The notes beneath the pieces are model-generated. The model made no database searches, had not been told where the DNA came from, and was given only the letters and a program-made list of their open reading frames with translations. A stretch of 64,000 nucleotides of DNA. Source: Eledone cirrhosa (taxonomy: Eukaryota). This document shows, in pieces, positions 14,095 through 58,947 of the stretch; position 1 is the stretch's first letter, and each line of letters opens with the position of its first letter. Position numbers and translations under genes: made by a program. The stretch spans positions 39,060,001-39,124,000 of the forward strand of contig OZ024743.1 of NCBI GenBank assembly GCA_964016885.1. Direction: 5' to 3'.

Positions 14095-15998
14095 TGATTA
14101 AATATCGAGAGAGAGAAGATGGGCGATACATATATTTAGTTGCCAATAGTTTGTGCATATGTGCTCAATACTCGTGCCTACAGGGTTAAATATTAGAGGT
14201 GTCAATATTTAGTGGGCGAGAAAAAATAAGCAGAGCGATTATAAAGGAAATTAATACAAATAGTTAGAACATGTTTATATAATAGTGCGCCTATATAATA
14301 GTGCACTTACGTACTAATCAATGGCATGGAAAGCAAAATAATGATCAATATAGGACCCAGGAGGGAATTCACGGTAAAATTAACATCATCGTTCATTGTG
14401 CCCCTCGTCTAGACACATATAAAAAGTACGGAGGTAAGGCGCCCCTACCTGAGCATAAAGTAATGGGAACGCATAACCGGCTACAGCACAGGAACAACCG
14501 TAATTACTGTCAAGGAAGCACAAGTACTGTCAAGGACGCACAACCTGTAACAAACCCAATGTAAAGCGGAAACGCCACCGTAATATCATATGGTTCCACC
14601 TCCACCCCCTACTCTCGGAGTGTGGCCTCCGACGTACCGACGATATTCTTCGAAGCCTTGGAGAGGAATTTCCCACCTAATCATAAATACAGATAAATAC
14701 TTCACAGGAACAGTATCACAATATCCTTTTCTACCACCCCCAATTTACCTGACATCATTAGGAGCAACTAATCACTGTAAGATCAACAAAATACTACTCC
14801 TTAGCTAGATACATCTAGACCTGACAACAACACTAATAACCTTAACATCCCCATAACAGCACCAAATAGTGTTGATGGCCGCTCCGGCAGACGAAACCTA
14901 CGTAACCAGGGCGTGATTGGAGAATATACCGGCGACCCACACGCGTCACCCTCCGGCAGCAGAACGGGCTGCGGCGTGCGGAATAATAATGGTACAACAC
15001 CGCACGCCTTGAGAGATAACAGTACCAATGACAGAGTTAGAGACAGAGATAGCAACATAGATAGCAATAGTAATAGCTTTACTTCAGGTACTAGGATCGA
15101 CCGTGACGGAAAATGCAACTGTCGTGACAGGGGAAGCTGCCCTCTCAGGGGAAAATGTCTGACTGATAAGGTTATTTAAAGGTGCACCGTAACTAGCCAT
15201 ATCGTTATAGAAGCCACCTCTGGCCAGTTTAAAACGAAATTTAGAACGCATCTCCACTCTTTCAGGAACAAACAACTCAGGCACTCCACATCGCTTGCCA
15301 ACTACGTCACCACATTGCAAGACGCCAACATAAGAATCTCCACACACTGGGATATTGTCGGTAGAGCTTCCCCCTACACCTTCAGGGGGAAATGCCAGCT
15401 CTGCCTCATGGAGCTATACTACATCATAAGACCACTCCACGAGCTCATAAACAGCCGAGGAGTATCAGTTATTAATTGTAAACACCGGGTACAGGCGTCG
15501 TATTTTGCCAGGGAGGCGACTGTGACATGAAAACTACGAACCCTGCCCGAACCATAACACCCTGGTGGGCAGGCAGTATAAACAAACATCTGTGAACCAA
15601 ATATACAAGGCAGACCATACTCGAACAAACATTAGTGAAGCAACATCCACTAAATAATAAATGTACACCCGAAACCCGACCAGTACTGGCACTAGTGAAA
15701 CAACACACATAATATAAAGATGCTAAACACCAGCATATGAACAGGTATAAAGATCCACATGGGACTGATTGTTTGAACACCGGCCAGAGTTACTCCCCCT
15801 GCTCTGTGATAATAAAAACACATGCACAGAGGGTAAAAATGAACGATGATGTTGATTTAACCGTGAATTCCCTCCTGGGTCCTATATTGATCATTATTTT
15901 GCTTTCCATGCCCTTGATAAGCCCATTCCGTATATAAAGGAAATGAATACAAAGAGTTTAAAACCGATAGAATTGCGCCTACGTACGTTTCGCCCGAA

Positions 15999-16005
<7 letters not shown>
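14095..16005 (+). mobile_element. 5'-truncated Penelope-like (Naiad-type) element with inverted 5' pLTR
   Basis: WF..PPYS..V...IFFEALERNFP linker at ~14590. CNCRDRGSCPLRGKC at 15114. GIY-YIG C-terminus CQLCLMELYYI..CKHR ending 15530. 14322-14407 is the reverse complement of 15830-15912. Confidence 0.85.
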
Positions 16006-20863: not shown

Positions 20864-20866
<3 letters not shown>

Positions 20867-21022
20867 CGACTCCCATGTACGTCAATGCTCGTCTTTTTTC
20901 CATTTATCTGAGGGTTCCAAACCCAATTATCAGGCTAAACATTTCTTTACTCTAAAATACGGTGAAAGCTATTCTATTTTCTAATTTCAAACCTGCTCAC
21001 TGTTTCAAAACATACTTATTTG

Positions 21023-21024
<2 letters not shown>
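20864..21024 (+). mobile_element. 5'-truncated copy of the tRNA-headed element (family T, see 58645) between (TA)n tracts
   Basis: gttcgactcccatgtac...caggctaaa...tttcaaacc.gctc.ctgtttc aligns with 58782-58950. Confidence 0.75.
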
Positions 21025-21092
<68 letters not shown>

Positions 21093-21098
<6 letters not shown>

Positions 21099-23860: not shown

Positions 23861-23906
<46 letters not shown>

Positions 23907-23909
<3 letters not shown>

Positions 23910-25349
23910 GACAAACATAGAATATTCGAAAATATTCTGTATGTTTATAATAAACATTTCGAAGACCCAATCGCTATAGAATAGAATACGTCACGTATTA
24001 CAATTTGAGATTCTCGATAAAAGCAAGGGAAGTAACCTACGCGTTTCATTCTTATTAGAAATCATCAGGATTACATATCCAGTGCTTTTATCGAGAATGA
24101 CACAGCTAGAGACTTATAGAATACTTAGCTGTGTACAGGAACTGATTTGAAAGAGCGGTTGCCGGTCCGGCAGAAATTAGAATTTGGATATAATGCTCTG
24201 AAATAGCGATATATACGTGAAGACAAACATAGAATATTCGAAAATATTCTGTATGTTTATAATAAACATTTCGAAGACCCAATCGCTATAGAATAGAATA
24301 CGTCACGTATTACAATTTGAGATTCTCGATAAAAGCAAGGGAAGTAACCTACGCGTTTCATTCTTATTAGAAATCATCAGGATTACATATCCAGTACTTT
24401 TATCGAGAATGACACAGCCAGAGACTTATAGAATACTTAGCTGTGTACAGGAACTGATTTGAAAGAGCGGTTGCCGGTCCGGCAGAATTTAGAATTTGGA
24501 TATAATGCTCTGAAATAGCGATATATATGTGAAGACAAACATAGAATATTCGAAAATATTCTGTATGTTTATAATAAACATTTCGAAGACCCAATCGCTA
24601 TAGAATAGAATACGTCACGTATTACAATTTGAGATTCTCGATAAAAGCAAGGGAAGTAACCTACGCGTTTCATTCTTATTAGAAATCATCAGGATTACAT
24701 ATCCAGTGCTTTTATCGAGAATGACACAGCTAGAGACAGCAACCGCTCTTTCAAATCAGTTCCTGTACACAGCTAAGTATTCTATAAGTCTCTAGCTGTG
24801 TCATTCTCGATAAAAGCACTGGATATGTAATCCTGATGATTTCTAATAAGAATGAAACGCGTAGGTTACTTCCCTTGCTTTTATCGAGAATCTCAAATTG
24901 TAATACGTGACGTATTCTATTCTATAGCGATTGGGTCTTCGAAATGTTTATTATAAACATACAGAATATTTTCGAATATTCTATGTTAGTCTTCACATAT
25001 ATATCGCTATTTCAGAGCATTATATCCAAATTCTAATTTCTGCCGGACCGGCAACCGCTCTTTCAAATCAGTTCCTGTACACAGCTAAGTATTCTATAAG
25101 TCTCTAGCTGTGTCATTCTCGATAAAAGCACTGGATATGTAATCCTGATGATTTCTAATAAGAATGAAACGCGTAGGTTACTTCCCTTGCTTTTATCGAG
25201 AATCTCAAATTGTAAGACGTGACGTATTCTATTCTATAGCGATTGGGTCTTCGAAATGTTTATTATAAACATACAGAATATTTTCGAATATTCTATGTTT
25301 GTCTTCACATATATATCGCTATTTCAGAGCATTATATCCAAATTCTAAT
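23907..25349. mobile_element. Young retrozyme-like array: 312-bp units, ~2.7 on minus then ~2 on plus, in (TA)n
   Basis: Unit markers at 23907, 24219 and 24531; inversion at ~24738; plus units at 24739 and 25051; copies nearly identical; one HHR per unit. Confidence 0.92.
24827..24869 (+). ncRNA. Minimal type I HHR (also 25139-25181 on plus; 24032-24074, 24344-24386 and 24656-24698 on minus)
   Basis: gtaatc CTGATGA tttct aata agaat GAAAC GC GTA ggttac. Palindromic stem III ACGCGT. Flanked by the perfect 16-bp helix attctcgataaaagca/tgcttttatcgagaat. Confidence 0.9.
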
Positions 25350-31777: not shown

Positions 31778-33840
31778 ATGGCTACGAAAAAGAATTTTCA
31801 TAGGTCACTCCCACTCATTCCTTCTTCTTCCTCAATCGTCACTACAGCAGAGAGAAGATTGTCTCTCTCCCTCCCTTCTCTAAATGGGTCTCTCTCCCTC
31901 GCTTCTCTTTCGCAAGCGACGCCAGAAAAGAAAAATCACGTGCAAAGCGTGCAAGATTTCTCCACGACGACGACGACAACGACGAGAAAGGTGTGCGGGA
32001 AATACGAAAACCGATTTCATTCGTCTGACGTCAGGAATAATAGCAGTAGCAGCCGTAATAACAGCAGCAACAGCAACAGTGATAAGGAAAACAACAGTTG
32101 CAGCTGCAACAGCATCAGCAGCAGCATAAACAACAACAGCATTAGCAGCAACTGCCACAACGACAGCAGCAGTACAACAACAACCACAGCAACAGCGGCG
32201 GCGGCAGTAGTCGTAGTACCTGCAGCAACAACAAAAGTAACAGCAGCTCTGACGACAACAAAAACAAAAAGAGCAGCAAAGAAAAACCAATCTCGTTTGC
32301 AGGTATCGCAAAGAACCTGGAAACCATCCTCATAAAAAATGAGGAATTAGAGGAAGCGAAGAAGATGGTGACGAAAATCGGACACCGAGCAATCTGCAAG
32401 GCAGCCGAACATTTTTTCGAAACCCAACAGCACTGTACGGTCACGTACCGTACAGTAAGTACAAAATCCCCTCGAGTTGAAAGAGCCACAGAGGCTCAAA
32501 TACGAAAAGCCTTAGGGTCTGTGTGGCAGCGGAAAACGCACATCACGCGAGGCAAGAAATATGCCACCGTAGACGTGCTTTTTGCCACACCCCAGGAAGC
32601 AAAGGCTCAATCCTTAGCGGCCCTAAGGAGCGAGGAAATCGTGTTGGTGCTCTCCTACTGCGGGAAAAAAATTGTGAGGGTCAAACTAACCCACGTGCCC
32701 CCAGTGAATGGCCCCTTCTTGGCTGGCCGCGTCTGTCCTCGTCGGAATCGAGGACAAAACAACTGTACTGCAAGAACAGAAAAAAGTAAGAGAAGATTGG
32801 GTCGGCACCTCCATTGAGATGTTAATCAAAATCAGCAAGGAGTGCAACGAAGCTATCCCGGATGTGATAGACTTCGATAGACTTAACGTCACTCAACTGC
32901 CCATAAGTATTGAGGGAAAACGCCCGAAATGCTTTCGCTGTCGATCGAAGACTCACCTCAGGGCCTTCTGCAACGAGAAGACCCTGAGAAAGGAAAACAA
33001 AAACCTCCTTCCGAAACCGGCTCCACGGCTACCAGCAACAAGTCAATCGGCAACCAGGAACGATAGGTCCGTGGCACCCATACACACGCCACGGAAATCA
33101 AGAACAGCAGCAGCAGTGAAAGTATTAACAACAACAACAGCAATACCAAATGCAGCTGCAGCAGAGACTCCACTGCAAACATCACCAACAACAAGTGAAA
33201 GAGTGGAGCTGGTTCCCCTACCCGACCTCACAGAACCAGACATGGAGTGTGAGGTGGGCGAGGGATGGCAAAAGGTCGTAAGAAGGCACAAACGCAGAAG
33301 CAGCGCATCGTCGCCTTCGAAAAGGGAGGAAAGAAATGAAAAAAAGGGTAAAGGCTACAGCAAAGAGACTCACAGCAGCAACACCACCAACACCATCACC
33401 GCCTACACTAGCACCACCATCACTACCGGCGATAACCCCACCGCCAACAACAACAACACCTTCAACACCACCACCACAAGCACCAACATCGCAAACACAA
33501 CAACAAAACACAGACACCCAGCAACAACGACAAGAAAATAGCAGAACCACACCCCACCCCCAGAAAAAAAATGCATGGCAAAAATACACACAACAAGAAA
33601 CTACTGACTTACATAATTGAAAACACAGATATTTCACAACACGACGACATAATACCAGCACCAATCAAAACGCCAACGAACATAAGACTGCTAAAGATAG
33701 CACAGAAACAATACACAAACACTAAAACGAAATTCCCCAACGCAGTTGGTGATTTCAGAAACCTAGGAGGGACTCTCAACCGGAAAGTATATTCGGACAT
33801 ACTCATAGAAGAGCCGACGACCAGCCGAAGGGACGATTAA
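31778..33840 (+). pseudogene. Tx1 ORF1 (gag-like RNA-binding protein with CCHC knuckle), disrupted
   Basis: ORF pieces at 31745, 32365, 32708 and 33571; CX2CX4HX4C at ~32930-32971. Confidence 0.75.
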
Positions 33841-33947
33841 ACGGTCCCTTCACCAGACGATCAAGTGAAAAGGGATGGACAAACCATCCTTCCTCTACAA
33901 AAAGTAGGGTAAGTGGTCTTTCCCATCTTTTCCACTCTCTTTTATAC

Positions 33948-36900
33948 ATGACCTCACTCAAAATAGGCAGCATAAATGCGCGTGGCTTGGTGTCGTCATG
34001 GAAGCAGGGTCACCTGCTCAACGACCTCAGGTCACTAAACATAGATGTAGTGGACATCAGCGAGACCAGATCTCAGAAGCACGGGCCTTCGCGCCCATCT
34101 TCGGCGGCTACAATGTGTACGCATCTCCCAGCCGTCCGGGATCGGGGGGAGGAGTTGCTGTGCTTTTTCGGAGAAGTTTGGATCTCACCATACGGGCCAT
34201 CTTCCTGGACCCAGAGGGTAAGTTGGTGGTACTGGACGGGACCAGCGGAGAGGGGCAAGCTTTCAGGCTAGTGGCCGTCTATGCCCCGACAGGAGCAGGG
34301 CGGCCTGATTTCTTCCGGCGTCTGGAGACCTTTCTTGGAACGTCCCGCTCTTTAGTGTTAGTCGGCAACTGGAACGGGATCTTAGATGCACGCTGGGACT
34401 GTGTAGGATTAGCGGAGAGGGGTGTAGGGTGCATGAGCCTCAGCAACCTGCTCAGGCGTTTTGAACTCTCTGAAAGCTACCGATTGGATTTCCCGAATGT
34501 GCCAATGTGGACTTGGACAAATCGCATAGGGTCATCCAGATCATATCTAGATAGAGTATTTTGTAGGGAAATAGATAGGTCTAGAATAAGCTGTCCACAA
34601 TTCAAGATAGTCAGCTACACGGACCACAAATTCGTGATCTGTGTGCTTGACTTAGATAGGCTTCATAGACGAGGACCCGACTACTGGAAGCTAAACGCGT
34701 CCTTACCAGCGCGCAAAGCCTACAGAGACCGGATTAGCGAAATAGTTAAGCGGGCGTTGACGGGGGCCATCGTCAACAACAAGTGGTGGTTTGCTCTGAA
34801 AAGAGCAATTAGAATAGAATCCATTACGTTTAGTAAGGCTTTAGCAATAGAGATAAATAGAGCAGAGGGAGAACTAGTTAGAAAATTAGACGAGGCGCTT
34901 AGCAAAGACATGAGACCGACGTGCTTGCGGCGAAATTAGCCCTTGACCTATTCTTCAATGCAAAGCCCGAAGGCTGCGTTGTCAGAGCTAGGGTGCGTGC
35001 TCTCAGACACGAGAGGACGAAAGCCGTTCAATGGGCCCGAGTGGCGGAGGCGCGTCGTGGCAACAAAGCAACGATCCGGTCTTTGGTGGACCACGACGGG
35101 CGTATGCTACTTGATCCCGGGGAAATGTGTGAAGCTTTTCAGCGACATTTCGCTCAGCTGTTCGGGGCCAGCGGTGGACCGGGTCGAGGGATGGACTTTA
35201 GTGTCTACCTCGACGGACTGCCGAGGCTCTCGGCCACTGAGGCGGAGTGTTGCGAAAAGCCGATAACAGCAGCTGAAGTACGGGAAGCAATGACTGGCTG
35301 CACAAGGGGTAAATCGCCTGGTTTGGAGGGTCTGCCCTATGAACTTTACGTACAGATGCCAGACTTGTTCGGAGGCCTCTTGGCGGACGTCTACTGCAAC
35401 TGGCAACAGAACGGGAGAATTCCCATCTCTGTGAGCCGAGGACCGGTGGCACTGCTGAGAAAGGATCCGAACAAGGGGGATAACATAGATAATTTCAGGC
35501 CCATAACTCTGATAAACACAGAGTTCAAGATTTTGGCCAAGGTGCTAGCAAAGAGGTTGGCGCTTGTTGTTGGTGGTTTGGTGGGAGAGGCGCAGACATG
35601 CGCCATTCCCGACAGATCCATCCACGACAACCTCCACCTCATGCAATACATCGTAGAGAGAGTAAATAGGGAACCTGGCATGGGTGGGTCCTTGATCAAT
35701 TTAGATCAGTCGAAAGCTTTCGATAGAGTCAACCATTGTTACCTAGCAGCAGTCCTGAGGGCGGCTCGCTTTGGGCCCGTCTTCAGAGGCTGGATCGCTG
35801 CCATGTACAGCTATATATGCTCTGTGGTGAGAGTGAACGGTCACCTTTCAGAACCGTTCAACATCATGCGCTCGGTCCGCCAAGGATGTCCTCTCTCGTC
35901 CCCCTTGTTTGTATTGACTCTCGAGCCATTACTGCATAAACTGGAGACGTTGAGGGAGGTCCCGCGCGAACTAGGATGCGGAAGATCGTGTCAGCATATG
36001 CGGACGATGTCACCGTAGTGGTGTCTAACGCCCAAACACATCGAGGCAATCGGCACTACACTAAGACAATACGAAGCGGTGACAGGAGCAATGATCAACC
36101 AGGAAAAGTCAGTGGGCCTACAGCTCAGCACCTGGAGAGGCAGGTCCATGCCGTCCAATAGCGTCGTCGGACGCTGGACGGAGGGACTGGTTAAATTGCT
36201 AGGGGTCTGGTTCGGTCCGGACTCCAGACGGACAAAAACTGGGACGAGGTGACGAGCAGGGTGGCTTCTCTCACCCAGAAATGGGCGGAGAGGAAGCTAT
36301 CCCTGAAAGGTCGAGTGGAGGTGGCTAACGCGTACATCGCGTCTGTCATCTGCTACCGCCTGACCGTTGTACCTTGTCCTAAGCCCCGCCTGACTGCGCT
36401 GGAGCATTTGCTCTTTCGCTTTTTGTGGAAGGGACGCGTTCCGATGATTAGGCGGTCCATCTGCTGTCAAAACCCGCTACGTGGAGGGCTGGGAACGGCG
36501 TGGCTGATGATGCGCAGACACGCGCTCAGGCTACGACATCTCCACCTCTTCCTCGACGGTGATCAGGTGTGGTCGCCGTTTGCTAGACACGTATTTCCCC
36601 AGCTTGTTTCCTTGACGGAGCTGCAGTCCTGGGTCAAGCGAAGACCGAGAGGGAGCGCCTGGAGACTGGAATGTCTTCAGGCGCTCCCAGTCCTCGACCA
36701 ATCGGGCAATGTGATCGGTGGAAACTCCACCTCGGCGTTCTATAGAGGATTAGTGGAGGGGAAGAGCGACGACGTACTTGGCGAATATCTAGCCGTCGAC
36801 GAAAATCAACTAGCCAATCTCTTCGGAAGAACTTTCGGGCCGGGACCTATGGATAACTCCCATAAATCTCTGGCCTGGCAGTGCTACCGAGGAGCTTTGC

Positions 36901-37010
36901 CAGTTTGGGATAAACTCTACAGGCATGGAGGTGCCGTCAGCCGGGTATGTCCGAGATGCGCGTAGGGCGACGAAATCCACCGGCACGCACTCGTCCAGTG
37001 TCCGAGCAAT
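33948..37010 (+). pseudogene. Tx1 ORF2 (APE endonuclease plus reverse transcriptase), frameshifted
   Basis: SINARGL, VYAP, SYLDRVF, TDH; KSPGLEGLP, FRPITLIN, DQSKAFDRV, VRQGCPLS, AYADDV; LSLKGRVEVAN. Confidence 0.92.
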
Positions 37011-45533: not shown

Positions 45534-45627
<94 letters not shown>

Positions 45628-46081
45628 GGGAGAAATTAGCTAAAACCCAAAGCTTTTCCAGGAGCCAAAATTTCTGCAAATTGTGTAATCTTGAGATATA
45701 TTACATAATCACACACAAGAAGAAACTGCTGAATAACAGAATTGAACGAACATTATTCTGCCGTCACAGAACTAAAACCCTTTTTTCCCACTACAAGCCG
45801 AATATTACATAAAAGAGAGACATCCCCCAACTATATAAACCTTAATCTAGTTAGAAAAATATAAAAACTATCTCTTCTCAACATATATTAATAACCTTAA
45901 ATTACCACACTAATAATGGAAAGATATGCTGATGAGAATAGGTGCAAATATGCGATAATGAATGTGTCTAAAAACGTCCATAAGTATGTATATATATGTG
46001 AAAATGTATATAAATAAGTAAATATATATATATGTTTGATGTGTATAGTTAGATGTAAGTGTATTCATGTATTAAAGTGCT

Positions 46082-46141
<60 letters not shown>

Positions 46142-46697
46142 ATATGTGTATATAGATGTGTATGTATGTGTATGTGTGTACACATGGACTAGAGTATGTA
46201 TGTATATATGTGTGTGTCTATACGTGTGTATATAAAGATAAGTTGAGTATGAAAATGTATACACACGAGCGCGTATGTATGTACATGAATACATGTGTGT
46301 ATATATATGTGTATGCATGTGTATATATATGTAAGTATGAATATGTGAATTGTGAGTTTATGTATCTTGTAGAGGTGTGCAAATATATTTGTGTGTGAAT
46401 GCGTGGGTGAAAGGATACGTACACTTGAAAGAAAAATTTAAGTCTGAATGTTAATTAAGTGCAAACACAAAACCAACCACGCATATCTTTACTATCTCTA
46501 ATCCTTCTATAGATTTAGAAAAATAACCAATAATATATTCTATAAAAAATGTCAAAACAACAGATGGGAATCTAATTACTCACTGCCACCAAGAATTCTC
46601 ACTGCTATCGAAAAACCACTCCTTCAACTATTCTTCTAACAACTTCACCCCTCCCTCCTAATATTCTCTATAAAAACTAAATAGGTCCTCAGTAATA

Positions 46698-46817
46698 TTA
46701 TTCCGATGAAATGACAGTAAATAATAACATTGAAATATTGAATGTCTGCATAACTAAAAGTGTGTAGATAGCAGCTGTTTTAGGTTATGTAACTGTTATA
46801 GAAACACGTGTCAATAA
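46698..46817 (+). ncRNA. Type I HHR with CCGATGA core and branched loop II, ~200 nt upstream of the PLE ATG
   Basis: ttatt CCGATGA aatgacagt..actgttata GAAA cacgt GTC aataa; palindromic stem III ACACGTGT. Confidence 0.8.
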
Positions 46818-47021
46818 ATTCCTTTCAACTAAACTGTATCCATTCAAATCTTTCTATTTTTCTCCGGATTACTTTTGGAACTACAACTGGAACCGTCGAG
46901 CAAACTCTACGTGAGCTGATAATCTACTGTGTGTAATATTTATATTACAACACAACGGAAAATACTGTATATTTACCTCCTGTAAAGTCGAGCAACCCAC
47001 ACAGCAAACGCAACCACAACA

Positions 47022-49344
47022 ATGGAAAAACACAATCTGGATATGTCACTCAAAAACATACCAACCCAAGGTAGAAAGGAATATTTGTTGAGTATGATTC
47101 AAAAAACTAATGAATTCCTTCGACGTGTCAGGTGGAAAACGCTCCACTATGATAGAAGCCGTATGAACTCAACATTAGAAAGTGGTGTAAACAACAAATT
47201 CGGTTTTAGGACTTGTAAAAACCCACCCACCAACCCACTATTAGATGCATTTGAGCAGGACCTTATGAACTTAATCCTTAAAATTAAATTCAAAGGACGC
47301 AACACCAGCAGCAAATTACAGAAAGATATAAAAATACTACTGGACGACCTTAAAAACACCAAAGGAATTGTAGTAAAAGCGGACAAAACATCAAACCTGT
47401 ACACTATGGATTGCACTACATACAACAACTTCATTCGAAAAGAATTACATAAAAAATATAGAAAAACGAGTGAAGTAACCCTTAAGCACATCAATGATGA
47501 GGCATGCGAAATAGTGAAAAATCTCGGAATCGAAGATAGGACAGGACCACTCTTACCGGCGGTACCCACCTTCAATCTTAAGGACCACAAGGTAAACTTT
47601 GATAATGACCCTAAAATTAGATTAATCTGCCCCTCTAAATCAGATATAGGTAAAATAAGCAAATATATCTTAGATAGAATCATCCCCCAAATTAAGGCTA
47701 AGGTTAACATTAAACTCTGGGGGAAGACCCAAGAAGCAATAAGATGGTTTAATAGCATTAGCAATAAGAATAAATCTAAGTTTATCCAGTTTGATATCGA
47801 TGAATATTACTCATCGATATCACCTGAAACTTTGAATAGAGCCATTAAGTTTGCTAAGGATAACTGTGACCTTACAAACGATGAAATTAAGATTATATTA
47901 GAAGCTAGGAAAACTATAGTCAAATTTGAGAACAGTTATTGGGTACGTAAAGATAGACCCTCTAACTTTGACATAACAATGGGCTCTAACGATTCGGCGG
48001 AAATAACTGATATTGTGGGGTTATTTATCGCCTTTAGACTCCAGGAAAAATTCAGCAATCTCCACGGCGGAATATACCGCGACGATGTTCTCCTCCTAGC
48101 TAAAAACCTTAATAACCAAAAACTAGAAAAGCTACGCAAAGATATAAGAAAACTACTACTCGAAATAGGACTAAATATAACATATGAATACAACCTTAAA
48201 GTAGTTAACTTCCTGGATGTCACACTCAATTTAAACTCTGGTTTGATTAAACCGTTTCATAAATTGAATGAAAATCTCAAATACGTAAATGTTGGGTCTA
48301 ACCACCCCATCTCTATAATTAAATCTATCCCTAAAAATATTTCCCTTAGAATCTCGGGTCTATCTTCTAACATACAAGTATTTAAGGAACACGCCGAGTA
48401 CTACGATAACGCCCTTAGTAAAGCAGGCTACCTCAACAAAATAGAGTACATAGATGGGAACAATCAAAACACCCAAAATAAATCCCACATAGGTAGATAT
48501 AATAACACAACACCAAACCACACTTACTACCATAGTATGCACACCAGTAAACCAACAAACAAAACTAATAGAAAGCGATGCAAAGAGTACTTATGGTATA
48601 ACCCCGAATACAATAGTTCCATTAGTACAAATTTAACAGTACTCTTCTTTAAAATAATTAAAAGACATTTTCCTACATCACACAAATACCACAAAATCCT
48701 AAACCCTACCACTATAAGACTGTCATACTCTACAGCGTTAAACCTTGAACAACACATAAAAAAGATCAATACTAGAAGGTTAAACGAAGACACTAAAAAC
48801 TTAAGTACAAAGAACACAAAAAAAACAGTAGACAATACACTACAGAACATAAATAAACCACACCTAAGTTCGTCCGCAATACTACTCCAGAGAAAACCCA
48901 ACGTACACAACTGTAACTGCACCTATCCTGACAACTGCCCCCTCGGCAATAACTGCCTGGAGAAAAATAATATTTATAAGTGTACCATTAAATCCGGAGG
49001 CAACGAGTGATATTACGTGGGATCAACGGCAACATCGTTTAAATCTCGATTGTATAGGCATTCTTACTCAATAAAACACCAGAGCCAAAGAAATGTAACA
49101 ACTTTGGCAGAAAAAGCTTGGACGCTCAGGGATAGCGATCAAAAGTTTACCCTAAAATGGGAGAAATTAGCTAAAACCCAAAGCTTTTCCAGGAGCCAAA
49201 ATTTCTGCAAATTGTGTAATCTTGAGATTTATTACATAATCACACACAAGAAGAAACTGCTGAATAACAGAATTGAACGAACATTATTCTGCCGTCACAG
49301 AACTAAAACCCTTTTTTTCCCACTACAAGCCGAATATTACATAA
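47022..49344 (+). CDS. PLE polyprotein (RT, CxCx5Cx5C linker, GIY-YIG endonuclease), ~770 aa, with one in-frame TGA (49008) and one extra T in a homopolymer (~49312)
   Basis: SLKNIP, KADKT, LKDHK..RLICPSKSDIG, FDIDEYYSSI, TMGSNDSAEITDIVG, IYRDD, FLDVTL, CNCTYPDNCPLGNNC, IY..YVGST, CKLCNLE, CRHR. The upstream copy gives the unshifted C-terminus LFSHYKPNIT*. Confidence 0.9.
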
Positions 49345-49611
49345 AAGAGAGACATCCCCCAACTATATAAACCTTAATCTAGTTAGAAAAATATAAAAAC
49401 TATCTCTTCTCAACATATATTAATAACCTTAAATTACCACACTAATAATGGAAAGATATGCTGATGAGAATAGGTGCAAATATGCGATAATGAATGAGTC
49501 TAAAAACGTCCATAAGTATGTATATATATGTGAAAATGTATATAAATAAGTAAATATATATATACGTTTGATGTGTATAGTTAGATGTAAGTGTATTCAT
49601 GTATTAAAGTG

Positions 49612-49673
<62 letters not shown>

Positions 49674-49941
49674 GTATGTATATATGTGTATATAGATGTG
49701 TATGTATGTGTATGTGTGTACACATGGACTAGAGTATGTATATATGTGTGTGTCTATACGTGTGTATATAAAGATAAGTTAAGTATGAAAATGTATACAC
49801 ATGAGCGCGTATGTATGTACATGAATACATGTGTGTATATATGTGTGTATGCATGTGTATATATATGTATGTATATATATAAGTATATATATATATATGT
49901 ATATATATATGTATATATATATATATGTATATATATATATG

Positions 49942-50005
<64 letters not shown>

Positions 50006-50067
50006 CATGCATGTATGTATATATATATGTATATATATATATATATATGTATACAAGTATATATATT

Positions 50068-50157
<90 letters not shown>

Positions 50158-50160
<3 letters not shown>

Positions 50161-52285
50161 TTAGAAACACACAGATACATGCGGACACACACATATACAT
50201 GAATGCATCCACATCCAACCGTGAGTTAATGGTGCCAACCTTACCGATGTTGCTCAATGAATGACTGGGACAGACCTATCCGGTTGAACTAGACTGAACC
50301 AGTATCAGAGTTAAAAATACATTATGAAGAGAGAAGGAACATTTAGATATAATTAGTAATAAAATGTATCATACCTAAACTGCTCCTAGATTCCTCGACT
50401 ACGTAGTTTCGTGGCATAAAAAAAACAGTGCATCATAAAGATATAGAGCCCTTGCGAGGTCTGCCGACTTATCAAGAGGATACCTCATTTTACTAGCTTC
50501 AAGAACGCGTCTACACGACGTGAGAAAGAATCCCAAAAGGCGGAGGGGAGATAGTCACGCGATATAACGGTCGAGAAACAGAGCTAAGCCTCTTATAACC
50601 CCGAAGAAAATACCCCGGAGGCGGAGGGGTTATTTATATCGAAGCCGTAGAAGAGGTGGTAAAGGAGGCGAGAAGTATGAGTAATGGCAGCTTTCCAGCG
50701 GTCACAACACTTCAAAGATTACTCGACCAGAGGGAGTTATGAACAATATATTTAGAAACACACAGATACATGCGGACACACACATATACATGAATGCATC
50801 CACATCCAACCGTGAGTTAATGGTGCCAACCATACCGATGTTGCTCAATGAATGACTGGGACAGACCAATCCGGTTGAACTAGACTGAACCAGTATGAGA
50901 GTTAAAAATACATTATGATGAGAGAAGAAACATTTAGATATAATTAGTAATAACATGTATCATACCTAAACTGCTCCTAGATTCCTCGACTACGTAGTTT
51001 CGTGGCATAAACAAAAACAGTACATCATAAAGATATAGAGCCCTTGCGAGGTCTGCCAACTTATCAAGAGGATACCTCATTTTACTAGCTTCAAGAACGC
51101 GTCTACACGACGTGAGAAAGGAAATCCCAAAAGGCGGAGGGGGAGATAGTCACGCGGTATAACGGTCGAGAAACAGAGCTAAGCCTCTTATAACCCCGAA
51201 GAAAATACCACGGAGGCGGAGGGGGTATTTATATCGAAGCCGTAGAAGAGGTGGTAAAGGAGGCGAGAAGTGTGAGTAATGGCAGCTTTTCAGCAGTCAC
51301 CACACTTCAAAGATTACTCGACCAGAGGGACTTATGAACAATATATTTAGAAACACACAGATACATGCGGACACACACATATACATGAATGCATCCACAT
51401 CCAACCGTGAGTTAATGGTGCCAACCTTACCGATGTTGCTCAATGAATGACTGGGACAGACCAATCCGGTTGAACTAGACTGAACCAGTATCAGAGTTAA
51501 AAATACATTATGAGGAGAGAAGGAACATTTAGATATAATTAGTAATAAAATGTATCATACCTAAACTGCTCCTAGATTCCTCGACTACGTAGTTTCGTGG
51601 CATAAACAAAAACAGTACATCATAAAGATATAGAGCCCTTGGGAGGTCTGCCGACTTATAAAGCCGACTTATAATGCCGACTTAATAATGTATTTTTAAC
51701 TCTGATACTGGTTCAGTCTAGTTCAACCGGATTGGTCTGTCCCAGTCATTCATTGAGCAACATCGGTAAGGTTGGCACCATTAACTCACGGTTGGATGTG
51801 ATGCATTCATGTATATGTGTGTGTCCGCATGTATCTGTGTGTTTCTAAATATATTGTTCATAACTCCCTCTGGTCGAGTAATCTTTGAAGTGTGGTGACT
51901 GCTGGAAAGCTGCCATTACACATACTTCTCGCCTCCTTTACCACCTCTTCTACAGCTTCGATATAAATACCTCCTCCGCCTCCGTGGTATTTTCTTCGGG
52001 GTTATAAGAGGCTTAGCTCTGTTTCTCGACCGTTATATCGCGTGACTATCTCCCCCTCCGCCTTTTTGGATTCTTTCTCACGTCGTGTAGACGCGTTCTT
52101 GAAGCTAGTAAAATGAGATATCCTCTTGATAAGTCGGCAGACCTCGCAAGGGCTCTATATCTTTATGATGTACTGTTTTTGTTTATGCCACAAATCTACG
52201 TAGTCGAGGAATCTAGGAGCATTTTAGGTATGATACATTTCATTACTAATTATATCTAAATGTTCCTTCTCTCTTCATAATGTAT
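50158..52285. mobile_element. Retrozyme-like array: ~591-bp units, 2.5 on minus then one inverted unit, in (TA)n
   Basis: Unit markers at 50161, 50752 and 51347; inverted unit 51685-52285; one HHR per unit; no ORF. Confidence 0.9.
50392..50480 (-). ncRNA. Type I HHR with U3-A8 core (also 50983-51072 on minus, truncated 51578-51659 on minus, mutated 52121-52210 on plus)
   Basis: tcctc TTGATAA gtcggca..tgccac GAAA ctacgta GTC gagga; palindromic stem III ACTACGTAGT. Confidence 0.82.
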
Positions 52286-52288
52286 ATA

Positions 52289-52345
<57 letters not shown>

Positions 52346-54459: not shown

Positions 54460-56036
54460 CATTCGTAAAAAACAAAACAGAAAAAAATTTAATCTACGAA
54501 TGTAAAGTTATAACTGACACCAATTCCTTTACCTATTTTGGCTCCACTTCCATCTCCTTTAAAGCTCGTCTTTATAATCATCATCCGACTTAAATACCAA
54601 CTTAAAAGAGAACCAACACGGCACTCTCAGAACTCATAAGGTCCTTGAAAGACAAACATATTAACTATAACATCTCTTGGAAGAAGTTTTGTTCTGCTTC
54701 TCCATACTTCAATAGTTCTCTATACATGCAATCTCTGTTTATGTGAACAATTTACCATTATATCTAATTTAGATTCTATAATAAATAGACGCACTGACTT
54801 GTTTTCTCTCTGCTTGCATAAATTCCACAGAACATTCCTAAAGTATACAGATAATTTCTAATACTTTATCAATTTAAAATCCTTTTTCTCAAAGGCACAC
54901 ATATATATATACATATATATTCCTTTAAAAATATACCCATCTTTCTACCTTATTTCAATGTTATTTATTATATATTATACAATACTAATTACTCATTCTA
55001 TATCACTCCTATTTATCACTTCCCTTTCTTTCTTTTTTCCTTTTCTCTTTCCATTTTTTCATTTTCTTTTAATTTCTAACCCCTAATCTGTACCTTTCTT
55101 CCTAGAAACTTCTCAATTATCATTGTGCCTAACGTAGAAACAATTATTACTCAGCACAATATATTCTTACTTTATATCACCTTGAAAAAATCCTTCGTAA
55201 ACATAAATATGTTTTTGACGTTAGATTATTCATCCTCAATTCATTATTTGTTTCTCCCTTTCATGCTCATCTAACTTATACATATTACACTTATTCATCC
55301 ACTCTTCTACTTCTTTCACAATAAAATCCTTAATTACATTACTATTGCTATATTTTTATATTTTTTAATAATACATATCAACAATTTCTTTCCATCGCAC
55401 ATATTATTAAACCCCTAAATATTATTCTTAATACATATTAACAATTTCTTTTCATCGCACATATTATTAAACCCTTAAATATACAAACCTTAATTTAACA
55501 TTGTTCTATTTTTTTCTCTTCGTTAATTTTCAAATTCTTTTAATTTATGTATTATCTTCCAACGGTTTTTCAACCTCTAATATGTAAAACAATATATTTT
55601 TCTCAGTTATAAAAGCTATCTCTCTCTCTATCACCCATCTCTCCTCCTATCTCATCCTTCTTCATTATACTCCTCCCCCTCCACGTTTTACTCTCGTCTC
55701 CTCCTTTTTGTCACCCCCCCCCCCCCCCACCCCCTCATTTTTTTCCCAATATCACACATCAATCTAAAACTACTTTTCATATGTTGATTTAAAACTGCAC
55801 TATTCACAATTGTGTTTTAACCTTCATATCATGTCTCCCTATTTTATCTGAAGAAAACGCAAATGTTATTGTATGATGATATTTGTTTTTGAAATGCGCA
55901 TAATAAAATACATGGGACTCTTTTAAAAATCTTTTGATCTCATATATTATTTATACTCCAGTCCTACAAACTGTAGAGTGCTACTTATCCGATATCTGCA
56001 TTGCTTTATTGTACTACAATAAAACTCACCTCCTAC
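54460..56036 (+). mobile_element. Short 5'-truncated PLE (GIY-YIG remnant 54480-54862, 3' UTR and pLTR)
   Basis: KNLIYECKVITDTNSFTYFGSTSISFKARLYNH; same family as 62340-64000; HHR at 55841. Confidence 0.8.
55841..55909 (+). ncRNA. Canonical type I HHR
   Basis: attttat CTGAAGA aaacgcaaatgttat..atgatatttgttttt GAAA tgcgc ATA ataaaat; 7-bp stem I; palindrome ATGCGCAT. Confidence 0.88.
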
Positions 56037-57508: not shown

Positions 57509-57845
57509 AGTACAGGGATATTTAATTTATTGGTAATTCAATAAATATATATATATTTATAACTAACACGAAGCACTCCACAAGTTTTCTGGAGTATAAC
57601 ATCAAATATATTAATAAGTGGAAACTATATTTATTAAATCATATTTATTCTATTATATATATTTCAAGGCTACGAAACTTTGGTACGCTCTCATCAGATA
57701 AAATACAAAGTTTGTTACATAAATATTGACAAACTTTTATTTTATCTGATGAGACCGTAGCAAAGTTTTGGTACCCTTGAAATATATATAATAGAATAAA
57801 TATGGTTTTGTAAATATAGTTTCCAATTATTAATATCATTGATAT
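57505..57845. repeat. Fold-back solo pLTR with an HHR in each arm (57649-57702 on minus, 57741-57795 on plus)
   Basis: tttat CTGATGA ga.cgta.caaagttt..gta.cctt GAAA tatata TA ataga; centre ~57722. Confidence 0.85.
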
Positions 57846-58628: not shown

Positions 58629-58644
58629 TATATTTTTTTTTTTT

Positions 58645-58947
58645 TTTACTAAAGAAATTAAAGAAATTATTTAGCCTGATTGTGGGGTTAAGAACCCTCG
58701 GAGAAATGGAAAAAGATGAGTATTGACGTACATGTGTTGGTGTAAATGTTAGCACAGTGGTCCGGATAACCACAGGTGTGGGTTCGACTCCCATGTACTT
58801 TAATACGCATCTTTTTCCATTTCTCCGAGGGTCCTTAACCTCACTTTCAGGCTAAATAATTTCTGTCATTTCTTTAGTCAAAATACAGCGATAGCTTACA
58901 TTTCTAATAATTTCAAACCGACTCGCTGTTTCGAAAATATTCTTACT

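Follow-up and report, generated by a model that had tools for sequence, protein, structure and literature searches.

A non-coding hammerhead repeat inserted in two arms into a (TA)n tract of Eledone cirrhosa: a putative new family of animal non-LTR retrozymes

The window, i.e., the whole stretch of 64,000 nucleotides of Eledone cirrhosa DNA that was analysed (GCA_964016885.1, contig OZ024743.1, positions 39,060,001 to 39,124,000 of the forward strand; coordinates below are those of the window), contains at 50155-52285 an array of a 591-bp unit in two arms. The best explanation is the insertion of a non-coding animal non-LTR retrozyme, likely copied into (TA)n by a Hydra-clade Penelope-like element, through its reverse transcriptase and endonuclease; its probability is estimated at about 75%. 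Judged on its letters, the locus would be one copy of an abundant, protein-free mobile repeat with a predicted self-cleaving RNA motif, and the array a putative new family within animal non-LTR retrozymes, i.e., of a kind already known. The features of the array that had been flagged as unusual are all either published or at chance level. The target and the layout make the link with Hydra-clade Penelope elements likely.

Layout of the array and predicted hammerheads

The direct arm (50155-51663, minus strand) is made of 2.55 tandem units: (i) unit 1, full, 591 bp (50155-50745); (ii) unit 2, full, 595 bp (50746-51340); (iii) a partial unit 3 (51341-51663), 5'-truncated inside the hammerhead core. 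The arm junction (51649-51690) contains 3.2 repeats of a 13-bp motif, read as a scar of slippage or templated end-joining. The inverted arm (51685-52285, plus strand) lies head-to-head with the direct one. Its 601 bp correspond to a permuted unit of 592 bp plus 9 nt (1.02 unit lengths), with ATAATGTAT at both ends (51685 and 52277), as the sequence-only reading had it when it equated this arm with about one permuted unit. The inner ends of the arms are unequal 5' truncations, with the slippage scar. The examination for a target-site duplication found (TA)n on both flanks: a TA-rich tract on the left (49614-50160), composed of the 3' tail of the neighbouring Hydra-like element and of the (TA)n target, and a (TA)n flank on the right (52283-52330). 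The pairwise identity of the window copies is 96.3-98.4%, the GC content of the unit is 42.6%, and the 64-kb window has no further copy of the unit outside the array.

Two consecutive hammerheads, of type I and on the minus strand, are predicted to be intact, i.e., that of unit 1 at 50392-50480 (core from 50475, C17 at 50397, predicted cut after 50397) and that of unit 2 at 50983-51072 (core from 51067, C17 at 50988, predicted cut after 50988). Two others are broken: the core is cut in unit 3, and the motif of the inverted arm (52121-52210, plus strand) is decayed by G12>A at 52192 and A15.1>T at 52195. The initial description of the locus as a non-coding hammerhead array of about 591 bp, with a U3-A8 core and a palindromic stem III, is borne out by the 2.55 units and the two intact predicted motifs. 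The motif consists of the core UUGAUAA (U3-A8), followed by GAAA, the palindrome ACUACGUAGU and the cleavage triplet GUC. Stem I has 5 Watson-Crick pairs, plus 4 bp beyond a bulge. Stem II has 6 bp with one bulge and closes a loop of about 45 nt, the spacing from core to GAAA being 58-59 nt. This loop II has its own hairpins and a possible pseudoknot partner of 5-6 bp (ACCUC in the loop, with which a GAGGU located upstream of stem I might pair), and canonical loop contacts are not evident. Within a single motif the stem III palindrome can pair over 3 bp; from one motif to another it can form a duplex of 10 bp (-12.9 kcal/mol). Dimeric Penelope hammerheads are reportedly the subject of a 2017 paper.

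A relaxed hammerhead descriptor matched 0 of 3000 dinucleotide shuffles of the unit; this descriptor is not exhaustive, as it missed the hammerhead of a 312-bp unit elsewhere in the window, which has U-U at the base of stem II. The Rfam search of the window gave no hammerhead match, either at the gathering threshold or at E<=10. The constrained hammerhead fold lies 1.1-1.6 kcal/mol above the free minimum of the isolated motif, which counts against the best explanation, and the stability of the isolated hammerhead region of 126 nt is not out of the ordinary (z=+0.78). Folded as a circle in the ribozyme strand, the 591-nt monomer between the intact sites reaches -157.9 kcal/mol (z=-3.2, 62% paired); none of 60 shuffles folded as well, and the opposite strand has z=-0.3. 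Among the variants listed for the contigs of public runs (40 of 41), no family variant at >=15% affects the core, GAAA or stem III, hence U3-A8 is considered as the family state. The listed variants that lie in or beside the motif concern loop II, the stem II bulge (private to unit 2) and one C>U, which leaves a distal stem I pair as G-U.

The array can be compared with the animal non-LTR retrozymes defined in PMC7229834, where Penelope elements are proposed as their movers. The likenesses are tandem units that are non-coding and each carry one type I hammerhead, a GC content below 50%, two consecutive complete motifs, a predicted self-paired circle and Penelope elements in the same genome. 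The differences are: (i) a 591-bp unit, which exceeds the circles of 170-400 nt experimentally shown (PMC7229834); (ii) the U3-A8 core and the long loop II without evident canonical contacts; (iii) the head-to-head inverted arm in (TA)n. In a literature search that covered the main text of PMC7229834 and of 10.64898/2026.07.22.740005, this two-armed layout was not found described for retrozymes. The unit had been called unusually long; it is not, since the family consensus lengths given in 10.64898/2026.07.22.740005 extend from 51 to 972 bp, with a mean of 650 bp in ray-finned fish. According to the same source, only one of nine predicted Xenopus dimers cleaved in vitro, a point against the best explanation.

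Natural U3-A8 covariation and an enlarged or bulged helix II are also described for Penelope-associated hammerheads (PMC4209133, PMC3088659). About 1,300 U3-A8 motifs are reported in Schistosoma mansoni (PMC4209133). PMC3088659 likewise reports a natural U3-A8 and, for Aedes aegypti, a 10-bp dimer stem made by a palindromic helix III. The present motif differs from these by a stem III that also exists with 3 bp as a monomer, and by the size, hairpins and possible pseudoknot of its loop II.

Template of the two arms and ends of the family

The window copies differ in 32 alignment columns, none of which is split 2:2, and in the three-copy region the private events are distributed 5/5/5. The unit was also compared with a contig of a public sequencing run (X7), 27 substitutions being counted and one, beside a deletion, left out: 20 of the 27 are common to all window copies, and each of the other 7 is explained by a change in a single copy. 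As the changes that distinguish the window copies are private, and as these copies all share 20 of the 27 substitutions against X7, both arms come from one unit sequence, and each copy has since acquired about 1.5% of private changes. It must be added that the allele of unit 2 at the equivalent of 50337 matches the family majority and not its sister copies, which counts against the best explanation.

A single template is compatible with a circle, and also with a young homogeneous multimer. The proposal, made from the letters, of a copying around a circular RNA is thus retained as far as it is compatible with one template; the one-lap arm, on which it was built, is weak evidence for it and does not amount to a rule. 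An arm of one lap is expected by chance in about 3% of cases if ends are uniform (19 of 592 positions), and in about 1 case in 5 if the join requires an ATAA microhomology. ATAA is found 5 times per unit, as well as in the slippage scar. As a sign of a circular template, the one-lap arm is suggestive only.

Alternatively, the template of the same retrozyme may have been a linear multimer, transcribed from a young homogeneous array and left uncleaved, with a weak or regulated hammerhead. This is a serious possibility, if short of a probable one; taken as a variant of the best explanation at this one step, a linear multimer and a circle have about even odds. It agrees with cleavage sites that are read through without scars in both arms, with the poor in vitro cleavage of Penelope-type hammerheads (PMC4209133) and with non-integral arm lengths (2.55 for the direct arm; 2.67 and 1.96 for the 312-bp array). 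However, an aged source array would leave variants common to the inverted arm and one direct unit, and the 32 differing columns contain none; moreover, coral, mussel and axolotl contain retrozyme circles in abundance (PMC7229834).

Public runs contain relatives at up to 0.34 of the sampled words, none of these runs being recorded as RNA. In X1, 1434 contigs (a contig count, not a copy number) map onto one unit, with several flanks and inversion joints. The family is dispersed and multi-copy. The unit joins head to tail in contigs of X1, X7 and X11 (three studies); in X7 it is a single 620-nt contig that closes on itself, as readily expected from a low-cover DNA tandem as from an RNA circle. 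A metagenome scan with a 22-mer gave 0 matches, and the viral contigs likewise 0. The sole metagenome match to the gapped pattern (L001) was discarded as due to chance, having neither similarity to the unit nor a stem I.

Both outer ends of the array are 3' ends in the ribozyme sense. End A (50155) lies 242 nt past the cleavage site and passes by a TG-rich tract into (TA)n; it is followed by TA/TG repeats in X1 (6 contigs), X4, X18 (153 reads) and X19 (164 reads), and is well supported as a recurrent TA-joined end. End B (52285), the outer end of the inverted arm, lies 80 nt past the cleavage site, which in unit coordinates places it upstream of end A by about 163 nt. Two X1 contigs enter TA at its equivalent, 50318, with a flank different from that of the window locus; with the window locus, they weakly support end B as recurrent. 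Whether genomic copies start at permuted positions had been put forward as a check; the reads indicate a recurrent end and not freely permuted ends.

These ends bear on a local origin of the array as a minisatellite, i.e., from one inserted monomer by unequal crossover and fold-back inversion, with no RNA step. Such an origin, which would likewise yield units identical at birth, is in line with the local amplification proposed for retrozyme arrays (10.64898/2026.07.22.740005). It is nevertheless very improbable, for three reasons: on either side the array finishes with a 3' end in the ribozyme sense, joined to TA where other loci also end; inside it, the two arms are unequally truncated in 5' and meet at a slippage scar; and the 312-bp family of the window has the same two-armed layout, with an end offset of 40 nt.

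Three other inversion joints are found in RAD reads (50214/50490, 51062/51444 and 50173/50572), with 1-7 read starts each and an ambiguous orientation; none of the three is at the end-B lap boundary. The 5' truncation falls at or inside the hammerhead core in the window locus (51663) and in one other (joint 51062, X18/X19), and a third joint precedes the core by 14 nt; from these three cases, the core is possibly a stall site of the reverse transcriptase. Other apparent ends were rejected: (i) the large piles of RAD loose ends at 50283/50284 and 50354 are interpreted as restriction-site artefacts, as family variants create AATT there; (ii) the «opposite strand» joints 50669/51941 and 51246/51933 are mapping artefacts between equivalent unit positions.

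Coding capacity and neighbouring Penelope elements

The longest ATG frames of the unit (84 and 48 aa) have no similarity to Penelope, and no ATG frame beyond about 50 aa is conserved across copies. The 84-aa frame was rejected as a gene since it is opened by changes private to unit 2. The unit lacks an ORF with reverse transcriptase and C-terminal GIY-YIG. Its six frames did not match either the Penelope endonuclease-end profile, built from nine Penelope ends of the window, or the neighbouring protein (E>=0.33; positive control, neighbouring pLTR, 1.4e-25). The «SCRR» frame upstream of the hammerhead, tried as an endonuclease remnant, had no profile match. The early statement that the unit has no ORF is upheld in the sense that none is conserved.

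The TATA-like GATATAAATA, which had been pointed out upstream of the hammerhead, is indeed present about 157 nt upstream of the core (51960-51969, plus strand; minus-strand occurrences at 50631 and 51226); it is at chance level, as 639 of 3000 shuffles contain TATAAA on a given strand, and is not the common allele of the family, since X7, X11 and the deeper X1 contigs read GATATGAATA at this site. It was consequently not kept as a promoter. Concerning Pol III signals, the unit contains no tRNA, no B box and only loose A-box matches.

A near-complete Hydra-clade Penelope element is found next to the array (45624-49880; frame of 782 codons). Its ORF (47022-49370, one in-frame TGA at 49008) carries the RWK, DKT and CxCx5C motifs, which PMC8557442 describes as marks of the Hydra clade, a clade that inserts in (TA)n and carries hammerheads. 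Its 730-bp pLTRs (45624-46344 and 49155-49880) contain a decayed hammerhead core of C3-G8 type and, unlike the 591-bp unit, the endonuclease end. The array lies tail to tail with this element and has only microsatellite-like sequence in common with it. About ten related Penelope remnants are present in the window. The 64-kb window contains no autonomous partner with sequence similarity to the unit, which counts against the best explanation, and no ORF-linked copy of the unit was found in it or among the loose ends listed.

According to PMC8557442, Hydra-clade elements share with the array the (TA)n target, the 5' truncation and a hammerhead near the 3' end, and a partial tandem with an inverted 5'-truncated copy is the signature layout of Penelope. 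The differences are that the array has no ORF, the whole element being the repeat, and that its ends are offset by about 163 nt, versus a tail of 30-40 bp in Penelope-like elements (PMC8557442).

This resemblance in layout and target is also what would be expected if a coding Penelope-like family had the unit as its pLTR or 3' untranslated end, the locus being a 5'-truncated tandem and inverted insertion of this family. For 24 of 57 Xenopus retrozyme families, a match to annotated elements, nearly all Penelope termini, is reported (10.64898/2026.07.22.740005); a Hydra-like copy at 15910-15999 bears both halves of a U3-A8 hammerhead at its 3' end; and the summed contig depth, a poor measure, is lowest just past end A. 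This explanation is nonetheless judged improbable: no ORF remnant is found in six frames while the neighbouring 730-bp pLTR contains an endonuclease end, the 2.55 units are uninterrupted, the unit loops on itself in three studies, and the loose ends listed (30 letters each) include no recurring exit into unique sequence.

The insertion of a non-coding retrozyme by a Penelope-like enzyme, i.e., the preferred explanation, might proceed as follows. Tandem loci would be transcribed, and a 591-nt monomer would be cut out by paired hammerheads, which may dimerise through their palindromic stem III; this monomer may be ligated into a circle. Each nicked strand of the target would prime a cDNA, the two starting points being end A and end B. 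Synthesis would proceed for 2.55 and 1.02 unit lengths through uncut ribozyme sites, and the cDNA ends would be joined head to head, leaving the slippage scar. After insertion, about 1.5% of private changes would have accrued per copy. In the literature compared here, the mobilisation of retrozymes by Penelope-like elements from circular RNA is proposed, not demonstrated; circular templates are proposed for Penelope tandems in PMC4209133, and PMC8557442 calls the mechanism of tandem and inverted Penelope insertions an open task.

A more specific version, in which a Hydra-clade enzyme performs rolling-circle reverse transcription of one small RNA circle from both strands of the cut TA tract, at two fixed sites 163 nt apart, is tentative and rather unlikely. 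If true, the unit would be a minimal substrate of 591 nt for this unsolved Penelope insertion mechanism, and a dimer- or pseudoknot-controlled U3-A8 hammerhead would keep the circle closed. The value of the locus lies in its insertion footprint; a substrate that is short and non-coding, and whose ends are defined, lends itself well to tests.

Other elements of the window

A second retrozyme-like array (23897-25349), also in (TA)n, has a 312-bp unit, with 2.67 direct and 1.96 inverted units and outer ends offset by 40 nt. Its unit contains a canonical C3-G8 hammerhead, with an ACGCGT stem III and U-U at the base of stem II, and has a circle fold of z=-4.7.

A truncated Hydra-like element, with an ORF remnant at 14586-15548, has its 3' end at 15910-15999. 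A U3-A8 hammerhead is divided there between the strands, its 5' half being on the plus strand and its 3' half, which includes a palindromic stem III, on the minus strand; the arrangement looks like the product of a terminal inversion of about 72 bp.

A group of four related type I hammerheads, all short and with A/T-rich stems, is located at 55848, 57697 (minus strand), 57746 and 59231, with the pattern TATTTTAT CTGA.. GAAA .. ATAAAATA-like; two of them form an inverted pair (57601-57843).

The window also includes a frameshifted non-LTR element (33753-36965), in which an endonuclease-like frame and an RVT_1 frame are recognised; a gag-like frame precedes it (about 32146-33541). Lastly, a tRNA-like Rfam match (58731-58802, 34.6 bits) lies inside a self-inverted repeat (58643-58883), which recurs near 20864-21098 and is probably a tRNA-derived short repeat.
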